From sequence record SRR31156797_8157: a DNA stretch of 46,961 nucleotides. One strand, 5' to 3'. Position 1 is the first letter of the stretch; the number at the start of each line of letters is the position of its first letter. The translations under genes were made by a program, and so were the position numbers. The notes below the pieces were generated by a model. The model was not told where the DNA came from. It did not search any database and saw only the letters and a program-made list of their open reading frames with translations. Shown here one piece after another: positions 6,349 through 25,795 of this stretch.

Positions 6349-6956
6349 GTATCCGAGTCAACAAGCATTTCACTGATCCATATCGGACAACATTAGGTTT
6401 ATCACTGATGAAATGTTGGCATGGTAGGGGGCAGTATCTATGTCCTACACATATCAAATGTCGCATAGCAAATTTGTTCATCGTTATAACAACAGCTTGG
6501 CCTGTGCTAGTTAGTTATAAAGATTATATTTATTGCTGACTATCTAGTTACTTAGTGCCGATTAAACCAAAGCCTATATTTATAAAAGTTTAAATAGCGC
6601 CTGTCAGTTTTGAAAGATAGTAAATATAAGAAAAATCTGACACAGATAGGCGTAGAATAAAGAACTTCAACATTACATAATTCAGTTCCCTTGTAGGGTA
6701 AAATATTGAACTGACGTTTTGCTGATGATTGTTAGAAACAGACAACTTTTTTGATTTATCTCAGTTAAGTTTCTAGCTTGTTTTTAATGACACTATTTTT
6801 ACGTCTCATAAAGAATACCAACAGACAATTAACACAAACTCTGTCGTTGTTTCACTATATATATTCTACACTTACAGATAATCATGCGGATTCATATGCG
6901 TTACTTATTGGTGTATGATTCGCGCTACTAAATCAAGAAGTAAAGGCAAGTGGAAT

Positions 6957-8372
6957 ATGGCAGCAAGTAAAGTCCTAAAGATTGCAGATGATGGTTATGC
7001 GACAGTATTAAAACTTGTCGATTTTTTGATCATCAACTTATCCATGTCTGCACTTGTGGAGTTGCTTGGTGAGCATGAAACGGCAATAGATATTACAGCT
7101 GGGTTTATTTTCTCAACTATTTTTTTATTAGCTGGAGAATATTGCCATTTATATTCCTACCGAACATTACGTCGGGTTCGTGAATCCGTTAAACGTATTT
7201 GTTTTACATTGCTGATTGCTTGTGCGGTCATGAAAGTCGTCCGCTTTGCTTTCCACAATGTCGAAGGGGTTGAGATCAGTCACTTAACGCCAAGCGTCTT
7301 TAACACTTGGTACCTACTTCTGTTTGTCGTGTTAATCGTCCTTCACTTAATGCCAATACTGGTGGTAAGAACGTACCGTCGAACCAACAATATTAAAAAA
7401 CGCATTGCGATTGTCGGTATGACAAAAGGTGGCTTAGCAACAGAACGTTCGCTACTCAAAGAGTACAACTCCGGAAGTATTGATATTAAATTTTATGACG
7501 ATCGTGGTGAGAATCGTTTTGGTTATATCACACGTACACCTTATGCCGGTAAAGTGGACGAGCTATTGCAGCTCGCTCGTCAAGGTGATGTGGATGAAGT
7601 GTATATTGCACTGCCTATGGTGGCTAAAGATAGAATTCGCGATTATTTAGAGCAGTTGTCTGATAGTACGGTGGATACCTATTTAGTCCCTGACCTTTAT
7701 ACCTACAATCTCAGTATCTCTAGTATCAAGTCGATGGATGGGGTGCAGATGTTTAGCGTGTTTGCGTCACCATTTGATGGAGTGGGCGCGGCCATTAAGC
7801 GTGTTGAAGACATCATTATTGGATCGATTATCACTTTGATGATTTCGCCTATTCTGCTTGCTGTCGCGGTTGGCGTAAAAATGAGTTCTCCAGGTCCAAT
7901 TTTGTTTAAGCAGGATCGTTATGGCCTGGGTGGCAAGAAGATCAAAGTGTGGAAGTTTCGCTCAATGAAGGTGATGGAGAATAGTGACGTTGTCACTCAG
8001 GCAACTAAAAACGATCCACGTGTGACGAAATTTGGTGCTTTTATCCGCCGTACGTCATTAGATGAGCTACCACAGTTTATCAACGTGTTGACCGGGCAAA
8101 TGTCGATTGTTGGACCAAGACCTCATGCAGTGGCTCATAATGAGCAATATCGGAAAATTGTCGATAACTATATGATTCGACATAAAATTAAGCCAGGTAT
8201 TACCGGTTGGGCTCAGATCAACGGCTACCGCGGTGAAACAGAAACCGTCGACAAAATGGAAAAGCGTATTCAATACGATATTCAGTACCTGCATGATTGG
8301 TCATTATGGCTGGATTTAAAGATTATTTTCCTGACCGTATTTAAAGGCTTTGTGAGTGAAACTGCATACTAG
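6957..8372 (+). CDS. wcaJ: Undecaprenyl-phosphate glucose phosphotransferase (WcaJ/VpsL/CpsA-type initiating transferase)
   Basis: 4 N-terminal TMs, central Rossmann-like region, [51 protein letters not shown]-terminal AY; ATG 6957 (alt 6915). Confidence 0.93.
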
Positions 8373-9651
8373 AGCGATCAGTTATTGGCTTGTGTTGGTT
8401 ACCCCTTTGGCTTATGCCGATTTGAAACCCAAATCGCATATTGGCGTGGCAGGAATAGATTTTCAAAGTAGGGTCGGAGCCTCTTATGGTTCTGATGACA
8501 ATGTGACGCATCAGGTCGATGGCAATAACGCTGTTGAATCTAACTATTGGACGGTTTCTCCTGAACTTAAAGCTATAGGAGAGCGAGGCGAAGATCAGTA
8601 TTTGTTCCTCTATCAAGGGGACTACAACCGTTATGAAGATTCTTCGCCAGATGACTCAGACCGACATTTTATGATGTTCGATGGCAGTTGGCGTTATGGA
8701 TTAAGACACGGGCTGAAGTGGAACATTCAACAAAGTTACGGTGAAGAAGAACGTGGGCTTGGATTAACAGAAGGGTTTGATCACCGTCAGATGAATCAAT
8801 ATGGTTTTGAACAAGACGGTGCCCAGTACGAGCAATTCAATACCAGTTTACGTTATAGCTATGGAGCGCCTAAGGGGCGCGGTAAGTTAGATGTGATGTT
8901 GCAAACCAAAACATTCGACTATCAGGATACTGATCAAATACGTGCGGCAAATAACGACTTCTATCAGTATGTTGTTGAACAGCAATGGCAGGAAACAACA
9001 GGTCTTGTTGAGCTGTTTGATCAATACAGTGACGATAGTCGTTTTAGGTATAGCTTCATTACTAATCGACGCCGTTATGAAGCGAATAATCGTAAAGACA
9101 GCGACGAATATTATTTAATGTTCGGTGTGAAAAGCGTTCGCAGTAGCAAAACAACCATTGAAGCGGATGTGGCTGCTTTGTACAAAACATTCCCTGAAAA
9201 TGACGGCTCAGAAAGTTTCTTGGGGGCTAACTGGGACGCTTCTATTGAATGGAAACCACTTAAGCACTCGATTTGGACACTGCACTCTGCACAGCGAGTA
9301 AAAGATCCAAGGCAAGAAGGCGGTTACATTTTGGATGGTATTTACGGTATTTCATGGAAGCACCACTGGTGGGTCGATCGCTTGACGACGACATTCAGCT
9401 ATCAATATGAGACGGAAGATTATCGAATGGAAGATAACAACCGTTTTGATAAAACCAAGACGGCGAAGTTCGCTGTTGGGTATGACTTTAGACCTTCTGT
9501 TCGTTTTGAATTCAATTATCAATGGCAAGAATTCAAATCAAATGAAGAGACAGACATTTTAAACATTGGTGAGTTTGACCAATATTCAATAGTTAGACGA
9601 TTGGGTTATCAGCAATCGATGATTGAGTTTCAGTTAAAGGTACAGATATAG
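8356..9651 (+). CDS. Outer-membrane beta-barrel protein of EPS export (VpsM/CpsB-like)
   Basis: Signal peptide ending LAYA, alternating aromatic/hydrophobic beta-strands, position between wcaJ and the OPX gene; GTG overlaps the wcaJ end. Confidence 0.8.
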   Translation: MKLHTRAISYWLVLVTPLAYADLKPKSHIGVAGIDFQSRVGASYGSDDNVTHQVDGNNAVESNYWTVSPELKAIGERGEDQYLFLYQGDYNRYEDSSPDDSDRHFMMFDGSWRYGLRHGLKWNIQQSYGEEERGLGLTEGFDHRQMNQYGFEQDGAQYEQFNTSLRYSYGAPKGRGKLDVMLQTKTFDYQDTDQIRAANNDFYQYVVEQQWQETTGLVELFDQYSDDSRFRYSFITNRRRYEANNRKDSDEYYLMFGVKSVRSSKTTIEADVAALYKTFPENDGSESFLGANWDASIEWKPLKHSIWTLHSAQRVKDPRQEGGYILDGIYGISWKHHWWVDRLTTTFSYQYETEDYRMEDNNRFDKTKTAKFAVGYDFRPSVRFEFNYQWQEFKSNEETDILNIGEFDQYSIVRRLGYQQSMIEFQLKVQI

Positions 9652-10242
9652 ATGCGAGTATGGTTTGTATTGTTGTTCACAGCTTTTCTATCAATGTCAG
9701 CCATAGCTGAGGTAGAACACAGTGAATCGAGTAGTTCGGCTTCGTCTGTCGCGGCTGAGCAGGGTAAACAAAATCAAGATGAGTTAGACGATTACATGTT
9801 GGGTACCGGAGATCGCATAGACATTATTGTTTATGGCGAACCGGATATGTCAATGAAGTTCAAAGTCAGCAAATCTGGTGTGGTGAATTTTCCCTACATT
9901 GGCGAAGTTCAAATCACGGGTCGTACTCCAAGCGCCATTGAACAAGAGATCGAAGAGCGATTAAGAGGCCACTATCTGATCAACCCAATGGTGACCATTA
10001 ACATGGAATCGTTCCGACTATTTTATGTGACGGGTGAGGTCACTTCGCCAAATGGATATGAATACCATCCCGCGTTAACAGTTGAACAGGCTATTGCAAT
10101 GGCTGGCGGTTTTACTGATCGCGCTGACCGCGACGATATAAATATTCGTCAAAGTGGGTCAAAAGAACTAATTGAAGATGTTGAGCTGACTCACCCAGTG
10201 CAGCCTGGCGATATCGTAATTATTGAGCAGAGTTTTTTCTAA
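9652..10242 (+). CDS. Short OPX / polysaccharide export protein (VpsN-like; Poly_export + SLBB)
   Basis: YMLGTGDRIDIIVYGEPD, G.VNFPYIG, VTGEV..P, AIAMAGGFT, VQPGDIVII; Sec signal without lipobox Cys. Confidence 0.9.
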   Translation: MRVWFVLLFTAFLSMSAIAEVEHSESSSSASSVAAEQGKQNQDELDDYMLGTGDRIDIIVYGEPDMSMKFKVSKSGVVNFPYIGEVQITGRTPSAIEQEIEERLRGHYLINPMVTINMESFRLFYVTGEVTSPNGYEYHPALTVEQAIAMAGGFTDRADRDDINIRQSGSKELIEDVELTHPVQPGDIVIIEQSFF

Positions 10243-10243
10243 T

Positions 10244-12391
10244 ATGACATTAGGTATGGTTGAAAGCGGCCGCAAAGTTGAAAGTACCATTGAATTTTCG
10301 CCGTTTATTAAAGCGTTAAAAAAGCATTGGTGGAAAATCTTACTGTTTACTGTGGTGGTGACAGGGGCTTGTTACCCACTCGTTTCGCGTATGTCGGCAC
10401 ATTATGTTTCGACATCAACAGTATTAATTAAAGCTCAGGAAGATAATGCAACGCCTTTAGAAAAGGTTGATGGGTATGACTCGACAAGAGCACCATACTA
10501 TCTAACTCAGTTCAATCTGATGCAATCACGCGTGGTACTGGAAAAAGCGATCTTGGATCTAAAGCTGCATGAAGATCCACGCTATAACGGTCAAGTTGAA
10601 ATGACAGACTCAATCAAAGAGTTACCGTTATCTGAACCTCAGCGTATTGAAGCTACGTTAAAAACATTGAAAAAGCATTTATCGTTTTCTGAAGTACGAT
10701 TAACTCAATTGGTGCATATTACATACGAATCTGAAGATGCGGAAGAAGCGGCGCGCATTGCCGATGGTGTCGCTCAAGCGTTTATTGATTACACAATTGA
10801 TCAAAAAGTTGAGAAGGTGAAAGCTGCGCAGCAGTGGAACCAACAACAGATGGAAAAGCTAAAAAATCAGGTTGCTGCTAAGAAAAAGGAGATGGAAACA
10901 TTTCTGAATGAAGCGGGCTTGATTACTTACCGAGGTATTGATGGTTTTGAAACACAGCAGATGAGCATCGCTTCAGAGCGTTTAGCCAACGCCACAGAGC
11001 GAAGAATGCTGGCTCAATCTCAATACGAGTTAGTGGTGAGTAACCTTGACGCTCCGTTAGAAGATGTGGCTTCTATCCCAGCGATTTCGAGTCACCCACA
11101 ACTGCAAGATCTCCGTATTGCAATGATACAGGCAAAGCGCTTGTTGTTTGAATTACAAAACCGCTATGGCCCAAGACACAACAAGATATTAGAAGCAAAA
11201 GCGCAAATAGACGCGATTCAGGGGCAATCTCGACAGCTATTGGAAGAGTTAAAAATCGGGTTGTACAAAGATTATCAAACTCAACTTAGCAAAGAGAATC
11301 GTTATAAAGCGTTACTCCAAAGCCAGAAGAACGACTTTAAATCGATGGTGGCCAAACGCGACAAATACGAGTCAATGAAAACCGATCTTGATAAAACCGA
11401 AGAGTTATACAAAGAACTGTTTGAGCGCAGCAAAGAGCAAAACTTAACGTTGACTTATCGTGAACCAGACGCGCTTCTTTATGATCCTGCTTCCGTGGCG
11501 AAACGACCGCAGAAACCGAATAAGCCATTGTTACTGGTGATGGTTTGTATTCTGTCGTTCTGTTTGTCGACACTGTACGTGATTATTCGTACGGCGATGG
11601 ATCGCAAAATTTATAGCCTTGAGCAAATTCCTAACAAGTTAGGATTGACGCCGTTAGCCGATTTACCTGAACTGGTAAAACGTGGTGAGTATTCACGTGA
11701 TGAACTCTGTGCTCTGATCCGTGCCAATAAGCCGGCATTTGAAACATTTCATGGTATTAAAACCGCGATTGAACTGGCAGCGCCTAGCACACGATCACTT
11801 GGTGTGGTCGCTTCTGGTGAAAAAGAGGGGGCTTCGTTGGTCGCGCAGCTGGTGGCAGACAGTTTAAGCCTCAATCACAACACCTTGTTAATTGACTTGG
11901 ACTATCGTAGTGAAGCTTCACTCTCGAGTTCTGTTGTTGGTAAAAATGAGAACGAAGAACCGTTAGGTGCTGCGCAATGGAATCCTGACAGTGCTAATTC
12001 GCTGATTGTTCAATTGGATGGCCAATGTGATTTCTTACCGCGCGGACAGTTAGATCAATCACCACTGGTTTTCTTCTCCGGTGAAGCGTTCTCTAACATG
12101 ATGTCTGAACTTAAACAGCGATACACTCGTGTGGTGGTCAATTTACCGTGTCTGAGTGATAACAAAGACGCTCAGTTAGCGGCTCAAGCCGTTGATGGAG
12201 TGATCGTTGTGGTTAACGCAGAGAGCCGTTCTTCAAGTGATATTCGTAAAGATATAAACAAACTTGTTCATCCTGAAATTACCACCATCGGCGCGGTATT
12301 AAACCGTGTTAAAGATGAAAATCTACAAAGTGAAGAATGTAAGCAGTTTATTTCTCAAGGTGAATTTTCAGTACTGTTAGCCGAGGGGTAA
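10244..12391 (+). CDS. Polysaccharide co-polymerase (Wzc/GumC-like) with degenerate BY-kinase domain
   Basis: TM - coiled-coil periplasmic domain (YGPRHNKI) - TM - cytoplasmic domain with LLIDLDYR, but Walker A reads EGAS, Walker B reads VVVNLP, and there is no C-terminal Tyr cluster. Confidence 0.88.
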   Translation: MTLGMVESGRKVESTIEFSPFIKALKKHWWKILLFTVVVTGACYPLVSRMSAHYVSTSTVLIKAQEDNATPLEKVDGYDSTRAPYYLTQFNLMQSRVVLEKAILDLKLHEDPRYNGQVEMTDSIKELPLSEPQRIEATLKTLKKHLSFSEVRLTQLVHITYESEDAEEAARIADGVAQAFIDYTIDQKVEKVKAAQQWNQQQMEKLKNQVAAKKKEMETFLNEAGLITYRGIDGFETQQMSIASERLANATERRMLAQSQYELVVSNLDAPLEDVASIPAISSHPQLQDLRIAMIQAKRLLFELQNRYGPRHNKILEAKAQIDAIQGQSRQLLEELKIGLYKDYQTQLSKENRYKALLQSQKNDFKSMVAKRDKYESMKTDLDKTEELYKELFERSKEQNLTLTYREPDALLYDPASVAKRPQKPNKPLLLVMVCILSFCLSTLYVIIRTAMDRKIYSLEQIPNKLGLTPLADLPELVKRGEYSRDELCALIRANKPAFETFHGIKTAIELAAPSTRSLGVVASGEKEGASLVAQLVADSLSLNHNTLLIDLDYRSEASLSSSVVGKNENEEPLGAAQWNPDSANSLIVQLDGQCDFLPRGQLDQSPLVFFSGEAFSNMMSELKQRYTRVVVNLPCLSDNKDAQLAAQAVDGVIVVVNAESRSSSDIRKDINKLVHPEITTIGAVLNRVKDENLQSEECKQFISQGEFSVLLAEG

Positions 12392-12396
12392 TCAGT

Positions 12397-13623
12397 ATGG
12401 GGTTGCTCAAAAGTATCTCAACCATTGCTAGCTCATCCATGCTCACTCAGGTGATCGGTGCGTCTTCAATATGGTTTGTATCTGATAAATATGGCATGGA
12501 TGAGGTGGGTATCTATGCCATGATTTACAGCATCGTGTTGATTGGTGCTCAGGTCTGTACTTTTGCTTCTCAGCTTTTGATTCCCAAGCAACACGAAGAA
12601 TATTTAGTGCAGAATATTGTCTTCTGTCTTTTGCAAACACTCATCATTGCGCTGCCTTTTACTGGCATTGTGGTTTGGTTGTTCGATAAACCGTTTGCTT
12701 TGTATTATCTGCTGACCTTGGCTCATGGCTGGATTCTGATTTCAGAAAACTTATTACTCCGAGATGAGAAAATGAAGATGTTGGCTTTCCAGCGTCTAAC
12801 TGCTTCATCGTTGATGTTAGCTTGCGTGTTGCTGACTCCGACCTCTGAACTCTTGTATTGGAGTTGGGCGAGTGCATTAATCATTATCGTGATTTTATGG
12901 TTGTGTTACTCGTTTCCGTTTCGTCTTATGGAGTGGAAACATTGGTCGGCGAAATCCAATGTGCTGTTTTTTAAACGCAACAAGCAGCACATCATTAACA
13001 TTGGCAGTGCTGAAGTTCTCGCTATGGCCAACAGCAATTTGCCAACTGTATTAATCAACTACTGGTTCTCTGCAGTGACAGCCGGTTACTTTGCCATTGT
13101 TAGTCGATTTTGTTTATCGCCAGTGGTGATTGTGGGTAACGCGGTGCGAAACTCTATCTTTTCCAAGTGGTCGCTGGATTTTCGTCATCAACGGTTTAAT
13201 TTCCCAGAGTTCATCAAGGTCAGAAAATTGTTGTTCGTGTTGGGTTTAGTGGCGACCGCGGGGGTATTTATCTTTTATCCGTTGGTGATGGAATTCGCCA
13301 GCAGTAGAAACTGGGTCAGCCATGAATGGGTGGAATCTATCCCAACCTCTCGTTACATGCTGCCGTATTTGTTTCCTGCGTTAGCGATTTGCCCGTTGAC
13401 CGTGATTGAATTGGTGTTTGGTTCGCCTAAGTATTTCTTACGTATTCAAATTGAACAATTGGCGGTGGTTGTCGCGGCATTTGTCGTATTGCCTTATTTC
13501 TACCCTGACTATGCCTATTCAGTGATGGCTTACGCCGTGCTTTCTGCGCTTCGTTACGGATTTATTTATTTGAAGGTCAATCAAAGAGCACGTTCCATGC
13601 GCAGTGGTATGGAGGTCAAGTGA
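12397..13623 (+). CDS. Wzx-type oligosaccharide flippase
   Basis: ~12 TMs, N-terminal ..SS.LTQVIG....YG.DEVGIYA and AVTAGYFAIVSR patterns; position in EPS operon. Confidence 0.8.
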   Translation: MGLLKSISTIASSSMLTQVIGASSIWFVSDKYGMDEVGIYAMIYSIVLIGAQVCTFASQLLIPKQHEEYLVQNIVFCLLQTLIIALPFTGIVVWLFDKPFALYYLLTLAHGWILISENLLLRDEKMKMLAFQRLTASSLMLACVLLTPTSELLYWSWASALIIIVILWLCYSFPFRLMEWKHWSAKSNVLFFKRNKQHIINIGSAEVLAMANSNLPTVLINYWFSAVTAGYFAIVSRFCLSPVVIVGNAVRNSIFSKWSLDFRHQRFNFPEFIKVRKLLFVLGLVATAGVFIFYPLVMEFASSRNWVSHEWVESIPTSRYMLPYLFPALAICPLTVIELVFGSPKYFLRIQIEQLAVVVAAFVVLPYFYPDYAYSVMAYAVLSALRYGFIYLKVNQRARSMRSGMEVK

Positions 13624-15008
13624 CGCTAAGTTTAAATAGTGGGTTTTATCTCCAAGTCGTGACCCTAACAACCTTAGTTCTGTGTGGTGTTGTTCAGTAC
13701 TTCACGGGGATAGGCGCGGTGCTTTGGCTGCCGTTTCTAATGACCTGTCTAATGGTTCTGCTGTTGCTGATGCAAACGCGTTACAGTGAGTTTTATATAG
13801 ACAATCAAGAGCGGGTATTGCTGCTGATGTTTGTCTGTTTTATCGCTATTGCAGTGGTATCGACCGTGTTACAAAGCGGAATAAAAGTCACGATTGTAGG
13901 AATGAAAAATGAGCTGGCGATTTCACTCATTCTGTTTTGCTTGCTACTGGGCTTTTGCCGTGAGTCTCAAATATACCGAATAACTAAAGCTCTGTACTGG
14001 GTGTTTTATGTCCAGTTTCCAGTCGTGTTGTATCAAGTACTGGTGGTCGTGCCTAAGCGTGTCGCGTTTCGTGGTGAATATGAAAAATGGGACGCCGTAG
14101 TGGGTACGTTTGGTGGTGATCCCATGAAAGGCGGCAATACCGCAGCAATGGGACTCTTTTGCTTATTGATTATGCTGCTTAAGCTGTCGGAATATAAGCA
14201 TGGTCTCTCCAGTAAACTCAATACCGGCTTGCACATTGTGGCTGCGTTTTCGCTGTGCATTTTGGGTGAAGTGAAATTCGTTATTCTACTGTCCCCATTT
14301 TTGATGGCATTTGTGTGGTTCTCCCCAAGTTATTTAGCGGGGATGAAACGATTAGATCTGAAAACGGCTTTAACCATTGTGGGGGGCCTGTTTGGGCTGA
14401 TTTCCGTTGCCATTATGCTGTTGGCAGCGTCGTACTCATCGGCGTTTGCTGGAAGTTCCGACAAGGGCGCACTGGAAGTCTTCATCGATTCTCTCTCTTA
14501 TGTCTTTGACCCAAACTACATCATGGAAACGGGTGAGTTAGGACGGATGACAACCCTATTTTTTTGGGGAGAGCATAGCGACTTATATGGCTTACCGAGT
14601 CAACTGTTTGGTTATGGCCTGAACGCGACCAACCGAGGCAGTACAGTTGCTCCAGGATTCTTAAATATTATTTTTAACGCATTTCTAGATTCGACTTCCC
14701 TCAGTATGTTGCTTTGGGAAACGGGATTGATCGGAACTTTGCTGTTTTTTACCGTAGTCGGTTATGCATTACGCATTGCAATGCCTAATCCTCTGATCCC
14801 CAGAGATAAAGTTACGGTAGAAGATATACGGTTACTCTCTTTTCAACCTGCATTTATCGCCTTTGGTATTGCGGGGTTGTTGAGTACTCCTTATAGCCAG
14901 ACCTTAATGATCGTACCTATGCTGCAGTTTCTTTTCTATTTTTCAATAGGCGCAGCGTTAGTGATTCGGAAGTCGGTATTAATTACAAGTGGACCTTCCT
15001 ATGGGTGA
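13620..15008 (+). CDS. Putative Wzy polymerase / O-antigen ligase-like membrane protein
   Basis: 10-12 TMs with two periplasmic loops (GTFGG...N, ELGR...FGYGL, LLWETGLIG); GTGA overlap with wzx. Confidence 0.7.
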   Translation: MTLSLNSGFYLQVVTLTTLVLCGVVQYFTGIGAVLWLPFLMTCLMVLLLLMQTRYSEFYIDNQERVLLLMFVCFIAIAVVSTVLQSGIKVTIVGMKNELAISLILFCLLLGFCRESQIYRITKALYWVFYVQFPVVLYQVLVVVPKRVAFRGEYEKWDAVVGTFGGDPMKGGNTAAMGLFCLLIMLLKLSEYKHGLSSKLNTGLHIVAAFSLCILGEVKFVILLSPFLMAFVWFSPSYLAGMKRLDLKTALTIVGGLFGLISVAIMLLAASYSSAFAGSSDKGALEVFIDSLSYVFDPNYIMETGELGRMTTLFFWGEHSDLYGLPSQLFGYGLNATNRGSTVAPGFLNIIFNAFLDSTSLSMLLWETGLIGTLLFFTVVGYALRIAMPNPLIPRDKVTVEDIRLLSFQPAFIAFGIAGLLSTPYSQTLMIVPMLQFLFYFSIGAALVIRKSVLITSGPSYG

Positions 15009-15999
15009 ACAAATCAAAATTAGTGTCATTATCAAGACCTATAATGAGCAGGCTGGTATAGCCAAAACCATCACCAGTATTCGAGACAACTTAATGCCGT
15101 ATACGCATGAAATAATCGTCGCGGATAGTTTGTCATCAGATGATACTCAAGCCATTGCGTTAGCTAATGGTGCAAAAGTGGCGTCGTTGGAAAATGGTGA
15201 TGAGCGTTGTTGTGGCGTAGGTCATCAACTCGGTTACCTCTATGCGCAAGGTGAGTTTTTGTTGCTGATGGACGGTGATATGGAGCTTGCTTCAGGTTTC
15301 ATCGAGCAAGGTATTGATTTTCTTGAATCTCACCAAGATTATGCCGGGGTTGCGGGTATGGTCGAAATGGATGACGCACCCAGTTATGAATTTAAATCTC
15401 GCAAGCAACGCCTACATAAGATCTATCCGGTCGGAGACACCAGCCATTTAGGCGGCGGCGGTTTATACCGTAAATCTGCGATAGAAAAGATCGGTTACCT
15501 GACCAATCGAAACTTACATGCCTACGAAGAAGCAGAGCTGGGGATGCGACTCAAGCATGCGGGCTATAAACTGCATCGTCTGGCGGTTCCTTACTTCTTT
15601 CATACTTCCTACGACATGTCGTCAATCGCGTTGATGAAATATCGTTGGCGCAGTGGCTACTTGTTTGCTTCAGGTGAACTATTGAAAGGATCGTGGGGTA
15701 AACCACACTTCAAAGACGCGCTTCATATCGTCAAAAATGAAGCGATTTTTACTTTATACCTCATCACACTAGCGCTTTCGCTTCTATCCTTTAATGTGCA
15801 ACTCATTACATTGATGCTATTGCCATTAGTGGCGTTTTTTACTCTCAAAGCGGTTAAGAATAAATCGTTGCGTGATGCTTTGCAGAGTGTGGTCAATTTG
15901 AGTGTGTTTTCTGCTGGTTTAATACGAGGTCTTATCGGCAGCCGCTTGAAAGACCCTCATGTTGCGCCAAAAAATCGAATGATTGTCGGAGATGAATGA
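15001..15999 (+). CDS. Glycosyltransferase family 2 with C-terminal TM helices
   Basis: ISVIIKTYNE, IVADSLSSD, LMDGD (DxD); hydrophobic C-terminus. Confidence 0.9.
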   Translation: MGEQIKISVIIKTYNEQAGIAKTITSIRDNLMPYTHEIIVADSLSSDDTQAIALANGAKVASLENGDERCCGVGHQLGYLYAQGEFLLLMDGDMELASGFIEQGIDFLESHQDYAGVAGMVEMDDAPSYEFKSRKQRLHKIYPVGDTSHLGGGGLYRKSAIEKIGYLTNRNLHAYEEAELGMRLKHAGYKLHRLAVPYFFHTSYDMSSIALMKYRWRSGYLFASGELLKGSWGKPHFKDALHIVKNEAIFTLYLITLALSLLSFNVQLITLMLLPLVAFFTLKAVKNKSLRDALQSVVNLSVFSAGLIRGLIGSRLKDPHVAPKNRMIVGDE

Positions 16000-17213
16000 T
16001 GAAAATCTTGTTGGTCAATAAATTTTTCTTCATGAAAGGCGGGGCTGAAACCGTCTTCTTTCAAGAAAGAGAAATGCTGGCGCATTCCGGTGCTCAAATC
16101 ATTGATTTTTCAATGCAGCATGAGAAGAACATTCCTTCCCAGTACAGCGAATTTTTCGTTTCTAATGTTGATTATCATTCTGGTAAGCAGAGTGTGATGA
16201 GTCGTTTAACCACCGCGATCAACTTTATTCATAACAATGAAGCGTGTGAAAAACTGAAAGCGCTCATCAATAGTGAAAAACCAGAAATCGTACACTTTCA
16301 CAATATCTACCACCAACTGACGCCTTCGATTATTAAAGTGGCAAAGTCACTGGGGTGCAAAACAGTGCTCACTGCCCATGACACCAAAATTGCGTGTCCC
16401 AGCTATACCATGTATCGAGATGGGCACACTTGTGAGGCGTGTTTGCAAGGATCTGTTTGGAACGCATTTAAGTATCGTTGTCAGGGTGGTTCACTGTTTA
16501 AGAGCGCGTTATTGTCTTTGGAAGCGAGTTATCAAGCGGTGGCAAAAAACTATCAGGCTGTTGATGTGATCGTTTCTCCCAGTCAGTTTCTCGCTAATAT
16601 TATTCGTCAAAAGCTGCCTCACAACCGAATTGATGTGATTGTTAATGGCATAGATGAACATGTAAATCGCGAAGGTGTTGAGGATGGTCGTTATTTTCTT
16701 TATTTAGGACGCCTTAGTGTTGAAAAGGGTGTTGCAACCTTGGCGAAAGCTTATCAAGAATCGAATCAAACGCTTCCGCTAAAAGTGGTTGGTGATGGGC
16801 CTTTGTATCAAGAGTTGGTTGAAAAGTACGACAACATTGAGTTTCTTGGATTTCAAAGTGGTGACGCGCTGCATACGTTAATCAAGCATTGCAGCGCAGT
16901 TATTGCTCCTTCGGAATGTTATGAAAACTGCTCAATGTCGGTCATTGAAGCAATGGCGTATGGTAAGCCGGTTATTGGTGCGGATATTGGTGGTATACCA
17001 GAACAAGTCCGAGAAGGTATTGAAGGGCGTTTGTTTGAATCAGGCAATCCTAGCTCACTTGCTAAGGTGATGGACAGCTTTGCCGAAGATCAACAGACGT
17101 CACAACAACTGGGTATCCATGCGCGTCAGCGTTTAGAAAACAAATACTCTATGACTAGGCATGAAAATGCACTCATGGCCCTATACCAAGAATTATTAAG
17201 TGAGAAAGCATAA
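15996..17213 (+). CDS. Glycosyltransferase family 4 with a Cys-rich insert
   Basis: GGAE, LGRLSVEKG, PSECYENCSMSVIEAMAYGKPVI, GGIPE. Confidence 0.92.
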   Translation: MMKILLVNKFFFMKGGAETVFFQEREMLAHSGAQIIDFSMQHEKNIPSQYSEFFVSNVDYHSGKQSVMSRLTTAINFIHNNEACEKLKALINSEKPEIVHFHNIYHQLTPSIIKVAKSLGCKTVLTAHDTKIACPSYTMYRDGHTCEACLQGSVWNAFKYRCQGGSLFKSALLSLEASYQAVAKNYQAVDVIVSPSQFLANIIRQKLPHNRIDVIVNGIDEHVNREGVEDGRYFLYLGRLSVEKGVATLAKAYQESNQTLPLKVVGDGPLYQELVEKYDNIEFLGFQSGDALHTLIKHCSAVIAPSECYENCSMSVIEAMAYGKPVIGADIGGIPEQVREGIEGRLFESGNPSSLAKVMDSFAEDQQTSQQLGIHARQRLENKYSMTRHENALMALYQELLSEKA

Positions 17214-18325
17214 TGACAATGAAAATTACGGTATTAGGTACGCGAGGTATTCCAGATGTATTGGGTGGTGTAGAAACCCATTGTCAGCACTTATACCCTG
17301 AAATCGTTAAACAGTCTGGCGCTGAAGTGTGTGTTATTGCTCGTTCACCTTACGTTGATTACAAGCACTCACAATATAAAGGGGTGACTACGCGAACGGT
17401 ATGGGCACCGAAAAAGAAATCATTGGAGGCGATCATCCATTCGACGTTGGCGGCATTTTCAACCTTAACCGATGGTTCTGATGTTGTTCATGTCCATGCG
17501 ATAGGCCCCGGGCTGGTGGTACCTTTATTGCGTTTGCTTGGTAAAAAAGTGGTGTTCACCCATCATGGCCCAGATTACGACCGTCAGAAATGGGGAACCT
17601 TTGCTAAGACAATTCTGAAAACGGGTGAAAGATTCGCTGCAAAATGGGCCAACGAGGTGATTGTTATCTCTGATGTGATCAATAATCTTATCAAAGATAA
17701 GTACCAGCGGTTTGATGCCAACTTAATTTACAACGGCGTATTGCTTCAACAAGCGTTGCCTAGCGAAGTCGTGACAAACATTTTGGCTAAGCACGAGTTA
17801 GAGTCGAAGCAATATATCGTTGCAGTCGGACGCTTTGTCGAGGAAAAGGGGTTTCATGATTTGATTGATGCTTATGCTGCATCAGGGTTAACCCAACCAC
17901 TGGTTTTGGTTGGCGATACAGACCATGAAACACTGTACAGTTCTGAGTTAAAAGCGAAAGCGCGTAACACTCAGGGTGTAAAGATGACAGGGTTCGTTAA
18001 AGGAGATGAACTCAAGGCATTATTTTCTCAGGCTAGACTCTTTGTTATGCCTTCGTACCACGAGGGGTTGCCGATTGCGCTACTAGAAGCGATGTCATAT
18101 TCATTACCGGCTCTGGTAAGCGACATCCCAGCAAATGTTGAGGTGGGTTTAAATGAGCAATGTTATTTTCCAGTAGGAAATGTCCCAGCATTAGCGGATA
18201 AACTGGCGCAGCTTCCTCCGGCCGATAATGTGAATTATGCTGAGTATCTGGAGAAATACGATTGGCAAAAAATAGCGAGTCAAACCATAGAGGTTTATAA
18301 AAAACTGACGGTTTATCGAAAATAG
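17213..18325 (+). CDS. Glycosyltransferase family 4
   Basis: GTRGIP..GGVE, VGRFVEEKG, PSYHEGLPIALLEAMS; TAATG coupling to the previous gene. Confidence 0.93.
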   Translation: MTMKITVLGTRGIPDVLGGVETHCQHLYPEIVKQSGAEVCVIARSPYVDYKHSQYKGVTTRTVWAPKKKSLEAIIHSTLAAFSTLTDGSDVVHVHAIGPGLVVPLLRLLGKKVVFTHHGPDYDRQKWGTFAKTILKTGERFAAKWANEVIVISDVINNLIKDKYQRFDANLIYNGVLLQQALPSEVVTNILAKHELESKQYIVAVGRFVEEKGFHDLIDAYAASGLTQPLVLVGDTDHETLYSSELKAKARNTQGVKMTGFVKGDELKALFSQARLFVMPSYHEGLPIALLEAMSYSLPALVSDIPANVEVGLNEQCYFPVGNVPALADKLAQLPPADNVNYAEYLEKYDWQKIASQTIEVYKKLTVYRK

Positions 18326-18339
18326 CAGGGAATCACTCA

Positions 18340-18744
18340 GTGTCCTCAAACAGTAATTCAGACAGAGTCATAAATCAGTTTTATCATACTCTTGATGACG
18401 ATATTGCAAATAGCTTAACCCATGAACAGAAACGCGGAATAGAGACCGCAGTCAAGTCGATGGGATTAGTGGCGCGTCACTCTATTGATATACGCAAAAC
18501 TTTCCCTTGGCTCGGTAAGCGTTTTTACTTCGTGTTGTTATGCGGTATAGACAGGCGCAAAAATGTTCGCGATCGCTCTGCTGTTGGCAATATTGTCGTT
18601 ACAAGTCTGATATTGTTTGGATTGATAGCAGTATGCCTTCTTGCTTTGTTGGCTCTTTACTTGATTAAGTCAGCATTAGGCATTGATATTTTTAAAGGAT
18701 TTTCACTAGGGATTTGGGATTGGTTTAAAGGATTATTTATGTAG
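18340..18744 (+). CDS. Small membrane protein of unknown function in the EPS operon
   Basis: 134 aa, one long TM then LYLIKSALGIDIF...SLGIW; 14 nt after the GT4 stop with SD-like AGGGA. Confidence 0.75.
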   Translation: MSSNSNSDRVINQFYHTLDDDIANSLTHEQKRGIETAVKSMGLVARHSIDIRKTFPWLGKRFYFVLLCGIDRRKNVRDRSAVGNIVVTSLILFGLIAVCLLALLALYLIKSALGIDIFKGFSLGIWDWFKGLFM

Positions 18745-18766
18745 GTAATTATACCCAGAGGTCTAT

Positions 18767-20293
18767 ATGAGAATGCAGCCTGTTAAAGCGGTTGTATTGG
18801 CGATGATGATGACATTGCCTCTAAGTTCCGTTTACGCTAAAAAGCCAGAGAATAACCCGTCAAACAACAAAAATAACCAAACATCGGAAACGGGTACTGA
18901 AAGTGAAACCAGTACCGACAATACAAACACCGAAAGTGAACTGGTTGATTTAAATAACCAGACTTACATTACGCTTCATCCATCAACAGTATCAGGGCCA
19001 GTGACCAACCCCGGAATGGGCGTTGAAACCTTCCACGACAATTGGGGATACACCTTAACCAGCGATGAATACCCAGATGCTGGTATCGATTATTACCGCT
19101 TTTATTGGAGTGAAATTGAGCCAGAAGAGGGTAAATATGTTTTTGATGTTATCGATAAACTATTAATTGAAAACCGTCACGAAACGCCTCCTAAAATGGT
19201 TGCGCTGCGTTTTATGACGGCTGATGAACCAGAAAGTGGCAGTAAAATACCACAATGGCTTATCGACAAGGGCATTAGCGGTTATTGGACTGACGACCAT
19301 AAAACCTTTGTCCCGGATCTCGATGATAGTTTATACCTGTATTACGCCGAAAAAATGCTGAATGCATTTGGTAAGCGTTATGACGGCAACTCAAACATCA
19401 GTTATATCGATATTGGTATGGTTGGCTCGTGGGGGGAGTGGCACAACACTAACTTTTCGGGTTTAGAGCCCATGCATGAGAAGTACACCGACGAAGAGTT
19501 GAACCGTTGGGTGGATATGCATTTTGCAGCTTTTCCTAAAACCCCTAAGATCATGCTGATCAGTGGCGGTGAAAGCTTGGCTTATGCAACTAAAAAAGGC
19601 GCAGGTTGGCGTGCGGACTGTTGGGGAGATTGGCATCATTTTTCTGATACTTGGAGTCATATGCGTGATGATTACCCATACCGTATCGATCAGGCGATGC
19701 GCAGCGACCCAGATTTTGAAACCAGTTGGCAAAGAGGTCCAATTAGCTTAGAAACTTGTGGAACCATGGTGACTTGGAAAGGCGATCAAGCGTACACCTA
19801 TGACGAAGTGAAACAAAGCTTAGATTGGGCGATTGAGCATCATGCTTCGTCGTTGAACTTGAAGTCAAAGGCTATTCCCGAAGAGTATCGATCGCTGTTT
19901 GATGAGGCGTTAACTAAGATTGGCTATCGTTTACGCTTAGATACGTTAAGTCATCAAATCGAATTGAATGCTGGTGGTGTACTGAATGTGAATGCCTTGT
20001 TCGTTAATGAGGGCGTTGCACCGCCTTATCAACATCGTTATTTGGCCTACCGCCTTGTAGACGAGTACGGAGAGACCGCATTTATTGGCAGCTCACATTA
20101 TGATGTAAGAACTTGGTTACCGGGTGAGCACGAAACTCACAGTAGCTTAACGCTACCTAAGGATATCGCCAAAGGGCACTACTATCTTGAGCTGGCACTG
20201 GTGGATAGCCATGGTGATGCGCGATTGAATTTTGCAAACGTTGGTAAGCAAGAGTCTGGCTGGTATCGTTTTTCTGATATTACGATTATGTAA
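18767..20293 (+). CDS. Secreted DUF4832-type protein, putative glycoside hydrolase (TIM-barrel-like)
   Basis: Signal peptide ending SVYA, N/T/E/S-rich linker, NPGMG, YYRFYWSEIEPEEGKY.F, IDIGMVGSWGEWH, IGYR, NEGVAPPY, WLPG. Confidence 0.75.
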   Translation: MRMQPVKAVVLAMMMTLPLSSVYAKKPENNPSNNKNNQTSETGTESETSTDNTNTESELVDLNNQTYITLHPSTVSGPVTNPGMGVETFHDNWGYTLTSDEYPDAGIDYYRFYWSEIEPEEGKYVFDVIDKLLIENRHETPPKMVALRFMTADEPESGSKIPQWLIDKGISGYWTDDHKTFVPDLDDSLYLYYAEKMLNAFGKRYDGNSNISYIDIGMVGSWGEWHNTNFSGLEPMHEKYTDEELNRWVDMHFAAFPKTPKIMLISGGESLAYATKKGAGWRADCWGDWHHFSDTWSHMRDDYPYRIDQAMRSDPDFETSWQRGPISLETCGTMVTWKGDQAYTYDEVKQSLDWAIEHHASSLNLKSKAIPEEYRSLFDEALTKIGYRLRLDTLSHQIELNAGGVLNVNALFVNEGVAPPYQHRYLAYRLVDEYGETAFIGSSHYDVRTWLPGEHETHSSLTLPKDIAKGHYYLELALVDSHGDARLNFANVGKQESGWYRFSDITIM

Positions 20294-21537: not shown

Positions 21538-21545
21538 TGAACAAT

Positions 21546-21794
21546 TTATTTATAGAATGCTTCAACTTCGCCTTTAAGCGTAATAAGCATTGGGTTACCC
21601 CAGCGATCTTTCGCTTTTGGTGAAGGAATTTTTACCCAGCCTTCACTAATGCAGTACTCTTCAACATCCGTACGTTCTTTGCCGTTAAGACGGATGCCGA
21701 TATGGTGCTCGAAACACTCAGCAACGAAGTGAGGGCTGCGAGAGTTACCTGATAGGTGATCGGGTAGTGCAGGCTTTGAGTTATTTTCGCTCAT
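21546..21794 (-). CDS. DUF3297-family protein
   Basis: LPDHLS..RSPHF, GIRLNGKE.TDVEEYCISEGWV, LKGEVEAF. Confidence 0.85.
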   Translation of the reverse strand: MSENNSKPALPDHLSGNSRSPHFVAECFEHHIGIRLNGKERTDVEEYCISEGWVKIPSPKAKDRWGNPMLITLKGEVEAFYK

Positions 21795-21918
21795 TGTTTG
21801 TGACCTGAAATAGATAAAAGTACCGCATTCTAAACTAATGCTTTGTCGTCACTCAACTATTGAAAGCAATAAATAGCGGAATAAGTGTTGTACGTAACCT
21901 GAGACTAAGCACCTTCAA

Positions 21919-24900
21919 TTAATTGAGCTTTGACGAGTAGGCTTCTACTGGCTCATTTTTCAGTAATGTTAGCACCTCATTTTCTGCTAAGGGTTCATAG
22001 AAATAGTAGCCCTGAAAATACTGGCAACCCTGGTTCAATAAAAACTCCAACTGCGCTTCTGTTTCAACGCCTTCAGCAATGGTAGTAAGATCCAAATTTT
22101 GGGCAAGGCTGATGATGGTAGAGCAAATTTTTCCATCTTCCTGAATGTTATGGCATTCGTCGACGAACGACTTATCGATTTTCAAAATATTGATCGGTAG
22201 TCGTTTGAGGTAGTTTAACGAAGAGTAACCTGTACCAAAATCATCGATGGAGATGGATATTCCCAGATCGTTCAGTTGAGACATTACTTCGATGCAACGG
22301 TTAATATCCGAAACTAATACGCCTTCGGTAATTTCTATCTCTAACCACTGCCCACTGATTCCGGTATGTTCAAGTTGCGCCCTTAAATAAGGGACAAACT
22401 CTTCGGATAGCAGATGTTTGCCGGAAATGTTTATTGATACATTAGTCATCGGGATTTTGTTGCTGTGGAGTTTATTTAAGAACTTAAGCGCAAGTTGAAT
22501 AACTCGATTGCCTAATGCGTTAATTAGGTTGGATTCTTCAGCAATCTTTATAAACACATCTGGGCTCACATTGCCATCGATGATGTGCTCCCATCGGCTA
22601 AGGGCTTCTACACCAATGACAGTCCCTTTATGATTGACCTTAGGTTGGAAAACAAGATAAAAGCGTTCGCTATTGATGTCCTCTCGTAAATCTTGTTCAT
22701 AACGAAAGTCTTGCCGGGCTCGCGTTGCCATATGGTCGACAAAGAATTGATAGTTGTCGCGACCTAACAACTTTGCCTGATACATAGCAATATCAGCTTG
22801 TTGGATCAGCTTATCCGCTTCGATTTGGCAATCATTGGTCATACTGATACCGATGCTGGTAGGAATGCTCAACCATTGTTTTTCAATTTCAATGGGTTGG
22901 CGCATAACTTCGAGAATTTCTTTCGCCTTGTGTTCAGCAACCATCTGGGTCAGTTCACCTCGCAATAGGATAATGAACTCATCGCCCCCCCAACGTGTAA
23001 TCACATCAGTTTCCCGAGTGACGCTGGTTAATCTTTGCGCAACCTCGCACAGCAGTTCATCGCCCGCTTTGTGACCCATGGTGTCGTTAATTCTTTTGAA
23101 CTTATCGAGGTCGAGAAAGAACACTAAGATTTTTTCTTCAACACTGTTTAGTGAAGTGAGGTAGCTGTTTAATCGTTCGACAAGATAAGTGCGGTTGTAT
23201 AAACCGGTAAGTGGATCACTATAAGCGAGCTGTTTCAGTTTCGCTTCTAGTTTGCGCTGACGTGTCACGTCACGAATATTGAGTACATATTCGCCTTTTG
23301 AGTGAGCCAACTGCTTTGAATAGGTAATTGAGACTTCTGCTGGGAACTCGTGACCGTTATTGCGGTGTAGCTTCAGGTTATTTCTGCGATTGAGTAACAG
23401 CCCTTCAGGCAGCATAAACCCGTGTTTTAGACTGTCAGAGAACCGTATTTGTGATTGTGCTGGAACAAAGGTGTTTACAAAGCTATTGCCTTTGGCTCGC
23501 GACGCTGGAATATCAAATGTACGTTCCGCAGATGAGTTGAATTCTAAAATATGGCCGAGAAGATCTAAGGTAACAATACTGTCCATTGATGAATCAAGAA
23601 TCGCGCTTTTTCGCGATTCACTGGACTGAAAGTTATTGATGGCTTCGTCCCGTGCTGAAATCTCAGTTTGAACGCGTTTAATGACTTTATTGTACTGGGA
23701 AGCAACCAAGCCGACTTCAGTAAACGCATGTTCCGGAACTGGGTTCGAAAAGTCGCCTTGATCTTGTTGATGCTTCATTGAGGTAAGAAGGTCTAGAAGT
23801 TCGGTCGCGGCCCGGTGTTCAGACACATTCATACCTTGATGTTCATCGTTTTCAGAAACACGTAACGGGCTAAAGTGATTGATTATCTTTGCTGCAGGGT
23901 AGCCAATTGCCAAACACCAAGCACTAATAGAAACAATGCCCGTAAGTTGAATTTGGATTTGTTCGAAGCGAGATAACCCAGTGCCAAGCGTTTCTAAATC
24001 ACCGAGTAAGCCAACAGCGAGAACGCCCCAGGCTCCAGTGAATAAGTGGGCAGGGACGACACCTAAAGCATCATCAATTTTTAAGCGAATAATCCATCTT
24101 TCACCCCAATACACGATCGCTCCGGATACGACCCCGATCAACATTGCTGCGGGTGTATCTACGGCATGGCAACCGGCTGTTATGCCAACTAAACCACCAA
24201 TGATGCCATTTAAGATGAGCGATACATCAAAATGGCGATGATAGTAAAAGTAGATAGCTGAAGCAGAAAAACCTCCCCAAGCGGCTGCGATACAAGTGTT
24301 TAAAAGCACCATGGGTACTTGAGCGTCAAATATTAATGTACTACCACCGTTAAAGCCGAACCAGCCAAACCAAAGTAATAGAGTACCCAAAGCTGATAGT
24401 GGTAAATTGCTTCCCTGAGGCAGTGTAATCCCTTTATCAAAACGACCAATTCGTGGGCCTATAAGCATTATGACGATGAGAGATAGCCATCCACCTACGC
24501 CGTGAACCACCATGGATCCAGCAAAATCGACAAAGCCAAGAGACTGTAACCATCCCGGGTTATCGGGGTTGTACGCTCCGGCCCATACCCAGTGTCCAGT
24601 GATGGGATAAATAAACGAGCTCATGACAACCGCCATCAGTAAATAGCCTTTAAAAGACATTCGCTCCGCAACAGCCCCAGACATAATGGTTGTTGCCGTT
24701 CCGCAGAACATCACTTGAAAGAGGAAAAAACTGGTATTCCAGGGATTAGATACATCGTTGAACAGATAAGGGAGGGGATTAATAAAGCCATAAGCACTCG
24801 CGCCAAACATAAGCGAAAAGCCAAATAGCCAAAAGATAATCACTGAGATGACAAAGTCTGCAATATTCTTTGCAGCCACATTTATGCTATTTTTGCTTCG

Positions 24901-24987
24901 AATTCGGCCGCTTTCTAGACACAAAAAACCAGCCTGCATTACGAATACAAGTAGCGCTGCTATTAGCAACCAAAAGTAGTTATCCAT
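21919..24987 (-). CDS. Ammonium transporter (Amt) fused to HAMP-like, PAS, GGDEF and EAL domains
   Basis: Amt motifs MQAGF..LESG, FQVMF, GAVAER, DFAGSMVVH, LWFGWFGFNGGS, DDALGVVPAH, LRV...E..G....EH; DPLTGLYNR, RETD-x5-GGDEF; EALSRW, EITE, DDFGTGYSS, AEGVE, QGY; ATG 24987 with SD AGGTGG. Confidence 0.93.
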   Translation of the reverse strand: MDNYFWLLIAALLVFVMQAGFLCLESGRIRSKNSINVAAKNIADFVISVIIFWLFGFSLMFGASAYGFINPLPYLFNDVSNPWNTSFFLFQVMFCGTATTIMSGAVAERMSFKGYLLMAVVMSSFIYPITGHWVWAGAYNPDNPGWLQSLGFVDFAGSMVVHGVGGWLSLIVIMLIGPRIGRFDKGITLPQGSNLPLSALGTLLLWFGWFGFNGGSTLIFDAQVPMVLLNTCIAAAWGGFSASAIYFYYHRHFDVSLILNGIIGGLVGITAGCHAVDTPAAMLIGVVSGAIVYWGERWIIRLKIDDALGVVPAHLFTGAWGVLAVGLLGDLETLGTGLSRFEQIQIQLTGIVSISAWCLAIGYPAAKIINHFSPLRVSENDEHQGMNVSEHRAATELLDLLTSMKHQQDQGDFSNPVPEHAFTEVGLVASQYNKVIKRVQTEISARDEAINNFQSSESRKSAILDSSMDSIVTLDLLGHILEFNSSAERTFDIPASRAKGNSFVNTFVPAQSQIRFSDSLKHGFMLPEGLLLNRRNNLKLHRNNGHEFPAEVSITYSKQLAHSKGEYVLNIRDVTRQRKLEAKLKQLAYSDPLTGLYNRTYLVERLNSYLTSLNSVEEKILVFFLDLDKFKRINDTMGHKAGDELLCEVAQRLTSVTRETDVITRWGGDEFIILLRGELTQMVAEHKAKEILEVMRQPIEIEKQWLSIPTSIGISMTNDCQIEADKLIQQADIAMYQAKLLGRDNYQFFVDHMATRARQDFRYEQDLREDINSERFYLVFQPKVNHKGTVIGVEALSRWEHIIDGNVSPDVFIKIAEESNLINALGNRVIQLALKFLNKLHSNKIPMTNVSINISGKHLLSEEFVPYLRAQLEHTGISGQWLEIEITEGVLVSDINRCIEVMSQLNDLGISISIDDFGTGYSSLNYLKRLPINILKIDKSFVDECHNIQEDGKICSTIISLAQNLDLTTIAEGVETEAQLEFLLNQGCQYFQGYYFYEPLAENEVLTLLKNEPVEAYSSKLN

Positions 24988-25213
24988 AACCACTGCACCA
25001 CCTAATTGTCTGTTCAATCCTTGAACGGGTATGATTATGTCTGTAAGTGCGTTAATGCATAGATTACACATTACATAATAATCAGATACATATAAAACAA
25101 TATACGGATTAGAAATCTAAATTACAATGTATTTACTCTAACTTAGAGGTAGGAAAGAGAATCCGGTGGCGCAACGCCTTATACGAACGGAAGGAGGCAG
25201 CTTCAGGTCATCA

Positions 25214-25239
25214 ACATGCACCAATGGATTGGTGCATGT
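25214..25239. terminator. Perfect hairpin just downstream of the cupin gene (terminator or RNA stabiliser)
   Basis: ACATGCACCAAT-GG-ATTGGTGCATGT; only a weak U-tail. Confidence 0.55.
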
Positions 25240-25252
25240 ATTCCAGTCATCT

Positions 25253-25756: not shown

Positions 25757-25795
25757 GCTCTAATCCTCGTTATTGGTATTGTAATTATCTGCTTT

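Follow-up and report, generated by a model that had tools for sequence, protein, structure and literature searches.

A Candidate Sd-Amt1-Type Ammonium Receptor Fused to PAS, GGDEF, and EAL Domains

The window considered here, the whole stretch of 46,961 nucleotides from sequence record SRR31156797_8157, carries on its minus strand a gene (21919..24987) that encodes 1022 amino acids plus a stop codon and joins an Amt-type ammonium receptor module, a helical linker, and PAS, GGDEF, and EAL domains, as judged from the list of open reading frames (ORFs), the translation, Pfam, NCBIfam, and a search of PDB sequences. A first-pass annotation of the same DNA had described this layout, including the RxxD motif of the GGDEF domain, and both the translation and Pfam confirmed it; every motif that it quoted is present in the translation, and the gene is real and intact. 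That annotation regarded the product as an ammonium transceptor and as the best candidate for a new system in the window, one that could switch a neighboring exopolysaccharide (EPS) system through cyclic di-GMP (c-di-GMP). Our combined results point rather to a member of a known receptor class, typified by Sd-Amt1 of Shewanella denitrificans, with an output module of a type for which we found no characterized example.

The gene and its Amt module

The ORF extends from 21919 to 25071 on the minus strand and would give 1050 amino acids from its first ATG. The likely true start is the ATG at 24987, which yields the 1022-residue product with the N terminus MDNYFWLL; the hexamer AGGTGG lies 10 nucleotides upstream of it, and the start residue is the same in 11 of 13 close homologs. 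The PAS, GGDEF, and EAL domains share one reading frame with the Amt domain and thus form a C-terminally fused cytoplasmic transducer, and the sequence GDFSNPVPEHAFTEVGLVASQYN is present in the translation. An AlphaFold2 (AF2) model, for which an alignment of 121 homologs was the input, had a mean predicted local distance difference test score (pLDDT) of 84.3 and a predicted template modeling score (pTM) of 0.47; it contains, in order, 11 long membrane helices before residue 373, a helix-connector-helix element, a PAS fold, the GGDEF domain, and the EAL domain.

The Amt domain spans residues 6 to 393 (23809..24972, minus strand) with 11 predicted transmembrane helices, and this is the range covered by the Pfam family Ammonium_transp (PF00909; E value, 1.4e-112). 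The NCBIfam profile TIGR00836 scored 389 bits, above its cutoff of 343; the equivalog profile for AmtB (NF007947) fell far short of its own cutoff (145 bits against 657). Among PDB sequences the top relative is Sd-Amt1 (8qpf/8qj3), with an E value of 1.4e-129 overall and 8e-115 over residues 5 to 441, a range that includes the linker, followed by Ks-Amt5 (6eu6; 2.7e-82), the assimilatory Af-Amt1 (2b2f; 1e-54), and Escherichia coli AmtB (~1e-34). The motifs MVVHGVGG and VVPAHLF hold the twin histidines H162 and H314, and F94, W135, F212, and S216 are likewise kept. In the alignment to Sd-Amt1, the selectivity path formed by W135/S216, F94/F212, and H162/H314 corresponds to W139/S225, F98/F221, and H169/H323, and all six residues are invariant columns in the family set of 121 sequences, which are only 54 to 96% identical to the query.

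The authors of the Sd-Amt1 study proposed the signature Q-X6-E-X15-N-X2-D-[FT]-X54-60-T-X2-[ST] for ammonium receptors, abbreviated AmR (Pfluger et al. 2024, PMC11152129). It is complete in the window protein at residues 18 to 103 as Q18-X6-E25-X15-N41-X2-D44-F45-X54-T100-X2-S103, the ligands of the ammonium-binding sites N1 and N2, and is matched by a regular expression in 117 of the 121 family members; with the switch residues K40 and Y115, this region lies within 24679..24936 (minus strand). Alignment to 8qpf pairs E25, K40, N41, D44, T100, S103, and Y115 with Sd-Amt1 E29, K44, N45, D48, T104, S107, and Y119. It also pairs F21, a wall position with Phe in place of Tyr, with F25 and the exit-constricting N260, which lies outside the signature span, with N269. 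Invariant columns in the family set include Q18, E25, N41, D44, T100, K40, and F21, and Y115 and N260 are at least 90% conserved. The sequence features that mark the AmR subclass, namely, the Amt fold, the N1/N2 signature, the selectivity path, the exit Asn with the wall Phe, and a fused transducer, were thus all found in the sequence, which places the Amt module with the ammonium receptors, unlike AmtB. The earlier proposal of an Amt-based receptor of the Ks-Amt5 and Sd-Amt1 kind, coupled to c-di-GMP enzymes, is supported accordingly by the PDB search, the N1/N2 signature, and Pfam.

Receptors of the Sd-Amt1 type are reported to keep the full Amt selectivity path and to steer a pair of NH4+ ions into N1/N2, a lateral pocket; their cytoplasmic exit is narrowed by an Asn, and their currents are of the binding type, not the transport type (PMC11152129). 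In Sd-Amt1, the efficiency of the cyclase was about tenfold higher with ammonium (PMC11152129). It might be argued that the window protein is nonetheless a true transceptor, whose Amt module transports ammonium for assimilation and also signals. The pore-lining residues of working transporters are all kept (F94, W135, H162, F212, S216, H314, and D154), the authors of the Sd-Amt1 study note that a structure by itself does not exclude transport, and plant AMT1 transporters bear the N1/N2 signature (PMC11152129). However, the exit-narrowing N260 and the wall residue F21 are present as in Sd-Amt1, and the currents of both Sd-Amt1 and Ks-Amt5 were of the binding type (PMC11152129; PMC5764959). Moreover, glnK is absent from the window, and the one orthologue-bearing genome checked has a separate glnK-amtB pair. 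We therefore regard assimilatory transport combined with signaling as unlikely; transport as such by the Amt module is possible but less likely than reception. The label "transceptor" is not supported for a protein with the N1/N2 site, exit Asn, and wall Phe of Sd-Amt1, and "receptor" is the better term because in Sd-Amt1 these features accompany binding, not translocation.

The genome in question, that of Marinomonas sp. TW1 (G001), carries the signature only in its fused paralog; three unfused Amt ORFs lack it, and one of these lies directly after a glnK gene. This pattern mirrors the split between receptor and transporter reported for S. denitrificans (PMC11152129). As the first-pass annotation had noted, no glnK is adjacent to the receptor gene: no P-II family match was obtained by Pfam among the 40 window ORFs scanned, and a tblastn search of the whole window with the GlnK of Marinomonas sp. 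TW1 found nothing (best E value, 3.6).

Output module, relay, and proposed mechanism

The GGDEF domain (residues 588 to 744; 22756..23226, minus strand; PF00990, E value of 2.1e-45) has its GGDEF motif at residues 667 to 671 and an RxxD I-site at R658 to D661, read as RETD five residues before GGDEF. A motif search recovered GGDEF in 120 and RxxD in 103 of the 121 family members, and the invariant columns include D626, D628, N634, D635, D643, K739, and G667 to F671, among which are the presumed metal- and GTP-binding residues, as assigned in the literature on PleD. In the EAL domain (residues 765 to 999; 21991..22695, minus strand; PF00563, E value of 3.4e-69), the motifs EAL, DDFGTG, KIDKSF, and EGVE are present, and E794, R798, N853, E885, E888, D915, D916, K936, E972, and Q992, located by alignment to MorA (4rnh) and presumably catalytic, are invariant in 121 of 121 sequences. 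Both enzyme domains thus look catalytically intact, as the first-pass annotation had concluded for the EAL domain and for GGDEF with its I-site, and both are strongly constrained in the family.

The nearest relatives of the output module among PDB sequences are MorA (4rnh; E value of 5e-95 over residues 585 to 1003), RbdA (5xgb; residues 448 to 1000), and DosP. The best NCBIfam match is to DibA (NF045675; profile positions 81 to 620 of 623), with 383 bits against a cutoff of 980; since all equivalog scores lie far below their cutoffs, the module is a relative, and not an ortholog, of these enzymes. RbdA, DibA, and many other proteins of the PAS-GGDEF-EAL type are net phosphodiesterases. The sequence is compatible with either sign of output, and a net cyclase, as in Sd-Amt1, and a net phosphodiesterase appear about equally likely.

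Between the Amt domain and the PAS domain lies a helical linker (residues ~393 to 463; 23599..23811, minus strand) that consists of a short helix at 393 to 410, a connector containing GDFSNPVPEH, and a long helix at 424 to 463. It is homologous to Sd-Amt1 residues 409 to 450, a segment that the authors of that study named HAMP from an AlphaFold model (PMC11152129). The AF2 model shows the two helices, separated by a 13-residue connector, with a pLDDT of ~50 to 74. A homodimer model of residues 388 to 592 scored 0.62, against 0.19 for the best of three controls, with at least 93% contact agreement between runs and a partner pLDDT of at least 83; of proteins solved as same-chain pairs, 21 of 30 attained the mark applied to this score, and of those solved as single chains, none of 23 did. 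Its contacts are symmetric along both helices (393 to 408 and 424 to 469) and the PAS N-cap, and the helices pack into a bundle. Homology to Sd-Amt1, the predicted helix-connector-helix, and the dimer model together suggest a HAMP-like linker, a likeness of structure only.

The PAS domain (residues 459 to 575; 23263..23613, minus strand) matched Pfam PAS_9 (E value of 3.4e-5) and PAS (3.5e-4) weakly, in both cases under the gathering score, and has a PAS fold in the AF2 model at residues 470 to 573 (pLDDT, ~80 to 88); no cofactor motif was recognized in it. The domain is conserved across the columns of the 121-sequence family, and PAS domains control many GGDEF-EAL proteins, DosP among them. 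Both points would fit an alternative in which PAS is the real sensor and the Amt module is a mere membrane anchor or oligomerization scaffold that senses no ammonium. The filter, the twin histidines, and all of the N1/N2 ligands are, however, invariant or nearly so in 121 sequences of 54 to 96% identity, which is not expected of an anchor, and we consider this alternative highly improbable.

Taken together, these results make it probable, in our view, that the window protein is an Sd-Amt1-type AmR and that it modulates the turnover of c-di-GMP by way of a HAMP-like/PAS relay. The analysis itself shows the domain layout, a sensor signature that is complete, catalytic motifs that are intact, the conservation of these features in the family, and a modeled dimer of linker and PAS; ammonium binding, coupling, and any output are what we infer by analogy. 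By that analogy with Sd-Amt1, a trimeric Amt module would take in periplasmic NH4+ via the selectivity filter and past the twin histidines, and two cations would be diverted to the lateral N1/N2 pocket (Q18, E25, N41, D44, T100, and S103) and not released to the cytoplasm. Occupancy of the pocket would shift E25, K40, Y115, and the C-terminal end of the Amt domain, and this shift would alter the pairing of the two-helix HAMP-like linker, which is continuous with the PAS domain and the GGDEF-EAL tandem, both of which would act as dimers. The balance of c-di-GMP synthesis and hydrolysis by the receptor would thus be set by external ammonium.

Several observations weigh against this reading. The Pfam HAMP profile (PF00672) gave no match to the whole protein at E values up to 0.01 and none to residues 380 to 470 at E values up to 10, a setting at which the HMMER filters remove most matches above ~0.1. 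The HAMP-like segment of the first-pass annotation is consequently backed by homology to Sd-Amt1, the AF2 helices, and the dimer model, and not by the Pfam profile. The linker is also the least confident part of an AF2 model whose pTM is just 0.47, and the dimer model may owe its pass to HAMP and PAS dimers of known structure that the predictor had memorized, because such dimers are numerous. The PAS domain could also feed in a second signal, from the cytoplasm, and this signal might prevail in the output. As to the sensor, plant AMT1 transporters sit in a signature-bearing cluster, so the N1/N2 signature is not exclusive to nontransporting sensors (PMC11152129), and the functional assignment depends on ~50% identity to one characterized receptor.

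Distribution of the architecture and the neighboring exopolysaccharide operon

The best 120 matches from a search of 5.8 billion proteins all share the four Pfam families in the same layout, at lengths of 1001 to 1045 amino acids. Their named sources include Vibrio sp. HA2012 (77% identity), JC009 (70%), and TH_r3 (66%), and further sources are Reinekea, Hahella, Agarivorans, Neiella, Paraglaciecola, Psychromonas, Marinomonas, Neptuniibacter, Colwellia, and Alteromonas; no model vibrio is among the best 120. In the databases these proteins are labeled "ammonium transporter" or "diguanylate cyclase." A full-length match was present in at least 11 of 301 genomes sampled from the order of Marinomonas sp. 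TW1 and in at least 2 of 300 genomes of a class sample, which includes three genomes flagged as unpublished (G040, G142, and G297) that were counted as without a full-length match; both tallies are minimum values because two candidates were scored per genome. In about ten more genomes of that class sample, the Amt-plus-linker part was recovered within open frames that differ in length. A scan of contigs with the whole protein was dominated by the generic Amt pattern WFGWFGFN; among the best 80 of at least 621 stretches, only four (L001, L002, L003, and L006) were full length, and none was a Vibrio locus. The four-domain architecture is therefore widespread, is common in cultivable marine Gammaproteobacteria, and is not unique to the window; the view of it as the best candidate for a new system was not borne out, as the architecture is already annotated in public databases.

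Genomes of the class sample (G092, G262, G222, G064, G111, G238, G018, G023, G136, G194, and G049) contain an Amt-plus-linker region that is 44 to 50% identical to the query from residue ~4 to between 450 and 586, within host frames of 550 to 1163 amino acids whose remainder is unlike the query. This suggests that the same sensor module is fused there to other output domains.

The window itself probably derives from a little-studied Vibrio lineage. Its malate:quinone oxidoreductase (Mqo) is closest to proteins of Vibrio olivae (77%) and Vibrio natriegens (74%) and had no match at E values of 1e-180 or lower in 300 genomes searched at class level. Two seawater RNA libraries from one study contain short contigs that are 85 to 99% like parts of the receptor gene at a depth of 2 to 5; such libraries can hold DNA and the contigs come from relatives, so they do not bear on expression. 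Four runs of one study labeled as soil metagenome (X2 to X5) hold 58 to 73% of the sampled words of window positions 20300 to 25300, and contigs of X2 are at least 99% identical over much of this region; a near-identical strain therefore also occurs outside the likely source sample.

On the plus strand at 6915..20293 lies a Wzx/Wzy-type EPS operon, identified with Pfam and NCBIfam, which we describe as context and not as a demonstrated part of the receptor system. It encodes a WcaJ-type priming transferase (TIGR03023; 527.6 bits against a cutoff of 410.75), a Wza-like exporter, a Wzc-like copolymerase/kinase, one family 2 and two family 4 glycosyltransferases, and a DUF4832 protein. Four of its genes (8356-9651, 12397-13623, 13620-15008, and 18340-18744, plus strand) matched nothing in Pfam or NCBIfam at the cutoffs applied, and the expected polymerase and flippase may be among them.

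It is possible to read the receptor as a dedicated local switch that puts the adjoining operon under ammonium control, the two forming one functional module. EPS synthesis in vibrios is classically c-di-GMP dependent. The last ORF of the operon ends at 20293 and the receptor gene stops at 21919, which bears out the distance of about 1.6 kb given in the first-pass annotation, and the same arrangement recurs in a metagenome contig (L095) whose receptor is 85% identical at the protein level, with the DNA only ~68 to 75% identical. However, the operon and the receptor gene are convergent, with three small minus-strand ORFs in the gap between them. The adjacency in L095, moreover, is a matter of ordinary synteny, because that contig is collinear with window positions 14763 to 35852, a stretch of 21 kb that reaches to both sides and takes in the last EPS genes. 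Beyond this close relative, none of 14 distant loci (L001, L002, L006, and L106 to L116) had a tblastn match (E value of 1e-3 or lower) to any of 11 EPS proteins within 8.5 to 10 kb on either side. Receptor identity groups these loci into about four lineages: eight loci are Marinomonas-like, four are Methylophaga-like, one is of another kind, and one holds a remote homolog with 33% identity. L003 is not counted, as the 4.2-kb contig on which it lies has hardly any flanking sequence. Pfam scans of L001 and L006 agree, with no polysaccharide genes near the receptor.

The density of c-di-GMP genes in the window weakens the argument from proximity further. A PAS-PAS-GGDEF protein is encoded at 30996-32513 (plus strand), and an MHYT-PAS hybrid histidine kinase at 39312-42665 (plus strand) is followed by a response regulator HD-GYP protein at 42678-43703 (plus strand). 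No Rfam family reached its gathering score in the window, and only subthreshold small RNA and microRNA noise was found between the EPS operon and the receptor gene, so there is no c-di-GMP riboswitch that would link the two. A consensus scan of positions 20200 to 25900 gave fewer promoter-like sites than expected (10 against 13.3) and more terminator-like ones (6 against 4.4), numbers that do not inform operon structure.

The adjacency to EPS genes thus looks like a property of local synteny in this lineage and not of the family, and the wiring is so far a positional coincidence within one lineage. Lack of linkage to the EPS locus was the outcome that the first-pass annotation had set against its own proposal, and it is what we see across the family (0 of 14 loci), although inside the lineage the linkage is kept (L095). 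A dedicated link between receptor and operon is unsupported, as is the suggestion that the receptor could switch the neighboring EPS system, and we judge a single functional module to be quite improbable. Any effect of the receptor on the operon would pass through the general c-di-GMP pool. A bolder proposal holds that the receptor is a two-way switch, in which occupancy of N1/N2 re-pairs the HAMP-like/PAS dimer and flips the protein between cyclase and phosphodiesterase, and that it was recruited in this Vibrio lineage to gate the Wzx/Wzy operon. If this were true, the availability of nitrogen would bear directly on whether marine copiotrophs attach or disperse; we consider the proposal improbable.

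Some other features of the neighborhood were noted. Two blocks that flank the receptor region in the window are missing from L095, the DUF4832 gene that closes the EPS operon (18767-20293) and a segment with a Cupin_7 (ChrR-like) gene and an AraC-family regulator gene (25253-26910). In the gap between operon and receptor, a leader of ~190 nucleotides (20693-20881, minus strand) lies upstream of an ORF for a small membrane protein of 86 amino acids (20432-20692). Leader and ORF together have a mean column identity of 92% to L095 (487 columns; 87% by blastn), against 68 to 75% for their neighbors. The leader may be a regulatory region; it had no Rfam match, and its fold energy was no better than that of shuffled sequences (z score of 0.19). 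In the window (28865-30469, minus strand) and in L095, the mqo gene and the receptor gene are 4 to 8 kb apart, as they are in four of the eight Marinomonas-like loci (L106, L107, L108, and L112), where Mqo is 50 to 55% identical; this proximity may be coincidence or the remnant of an old arrangement.

Significance and comparison with known systems

No characterized Amt-PAS-GGDEF-EAL protein was found in the full-text literature searched, a body that excludes most subscription journals, and the domain lists in Fig. 7B of PMC11152129 may already include this architecture; the passages checked in PMC2330054, PMC12487129, and PMC11796062 are not relevant to the window protein. Within the same literature, the first-pass remark that no Vibrio example with this architecture was known to be characterized is borne out. 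Our searches led to the two papers of Pfluger et al. (PMC5764959 and PMC11152129), and as far as they show, only two Amt-based receptors have been characterized, one coupled to a histidine kinase and the other to a cyclase. PAS-GGDEF-EAL is thus an uncharacterized output type of a known receptor class, not a new kind of system. A third output type would test whether the N1/N2 mechanism can drive a bidirectional second-messenger enzyme, and the receptor would reveal how a sensor that is trimeric governs a dimeric effector when a PAS relay is added. Ammonium is a major currency of marine nitrogen cycling, and because the family is common in cultivable marine Gammaproteobacteria, it is tractable for asking how ammonium feeds into decisions on biofilm and motility.

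With the AmtB/GlnK transporters, the window protein shares the Amt fold of a trimer-forming family, the filter, and the twin histidines. It differs from them in its low similarity (E value of ~1e-34), in having no GlnK partner gene in the window, in the Asn/Phe pair where the transporters have Ser/Tyr, and in its N1/N2 site. On the output side, MorA (4rnh), RbdA/PA0861 (5xgb), DibA (NF045675), and DosP align with the module over its full length and have intact GGDEF and EAL motifs; their input domains are different, and an Amt module is found in none of them.

Ks-Amt5 of "Candidatus Kuenenia stuttgartiensis" (6eu6; Pfluger et al. 2018, PMC5764959) is an Amt-based ammonium receptor with the same N1/N2 ligands that binds NH4+ without translocating it. 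Its Amt domain is more distant from the window protein (E value of 2.7e-82), and its transducer is a histidine kinase, described by the authors as without PAS and HAMP domains (PMC5764959).

The closest counterpart is Sd-Amt1 (8qpf, 8qj3, and 8qj4; PMC11152129), which likewise has every residue of the N1/N2 site, the Asn at the exit, the switch residues K and Y, the helical HAMP-like linker, and a GGDEF domain with RxxD, in an alignment that extends to residue 441 at ~50% identity as estimated by eye. Sd-Amt1, with 644 to 661 amino acids, runs from the linker helix straight into a single GGDEF domain, which is weakly similar to that of the window protein (E value of 5e-12). In the window protein, a PAS domain lies between linker and GGDEF and an intact EAL domain follows, and its output may therefore be synthesis of c-di-GMP, hydrolysis, or both.

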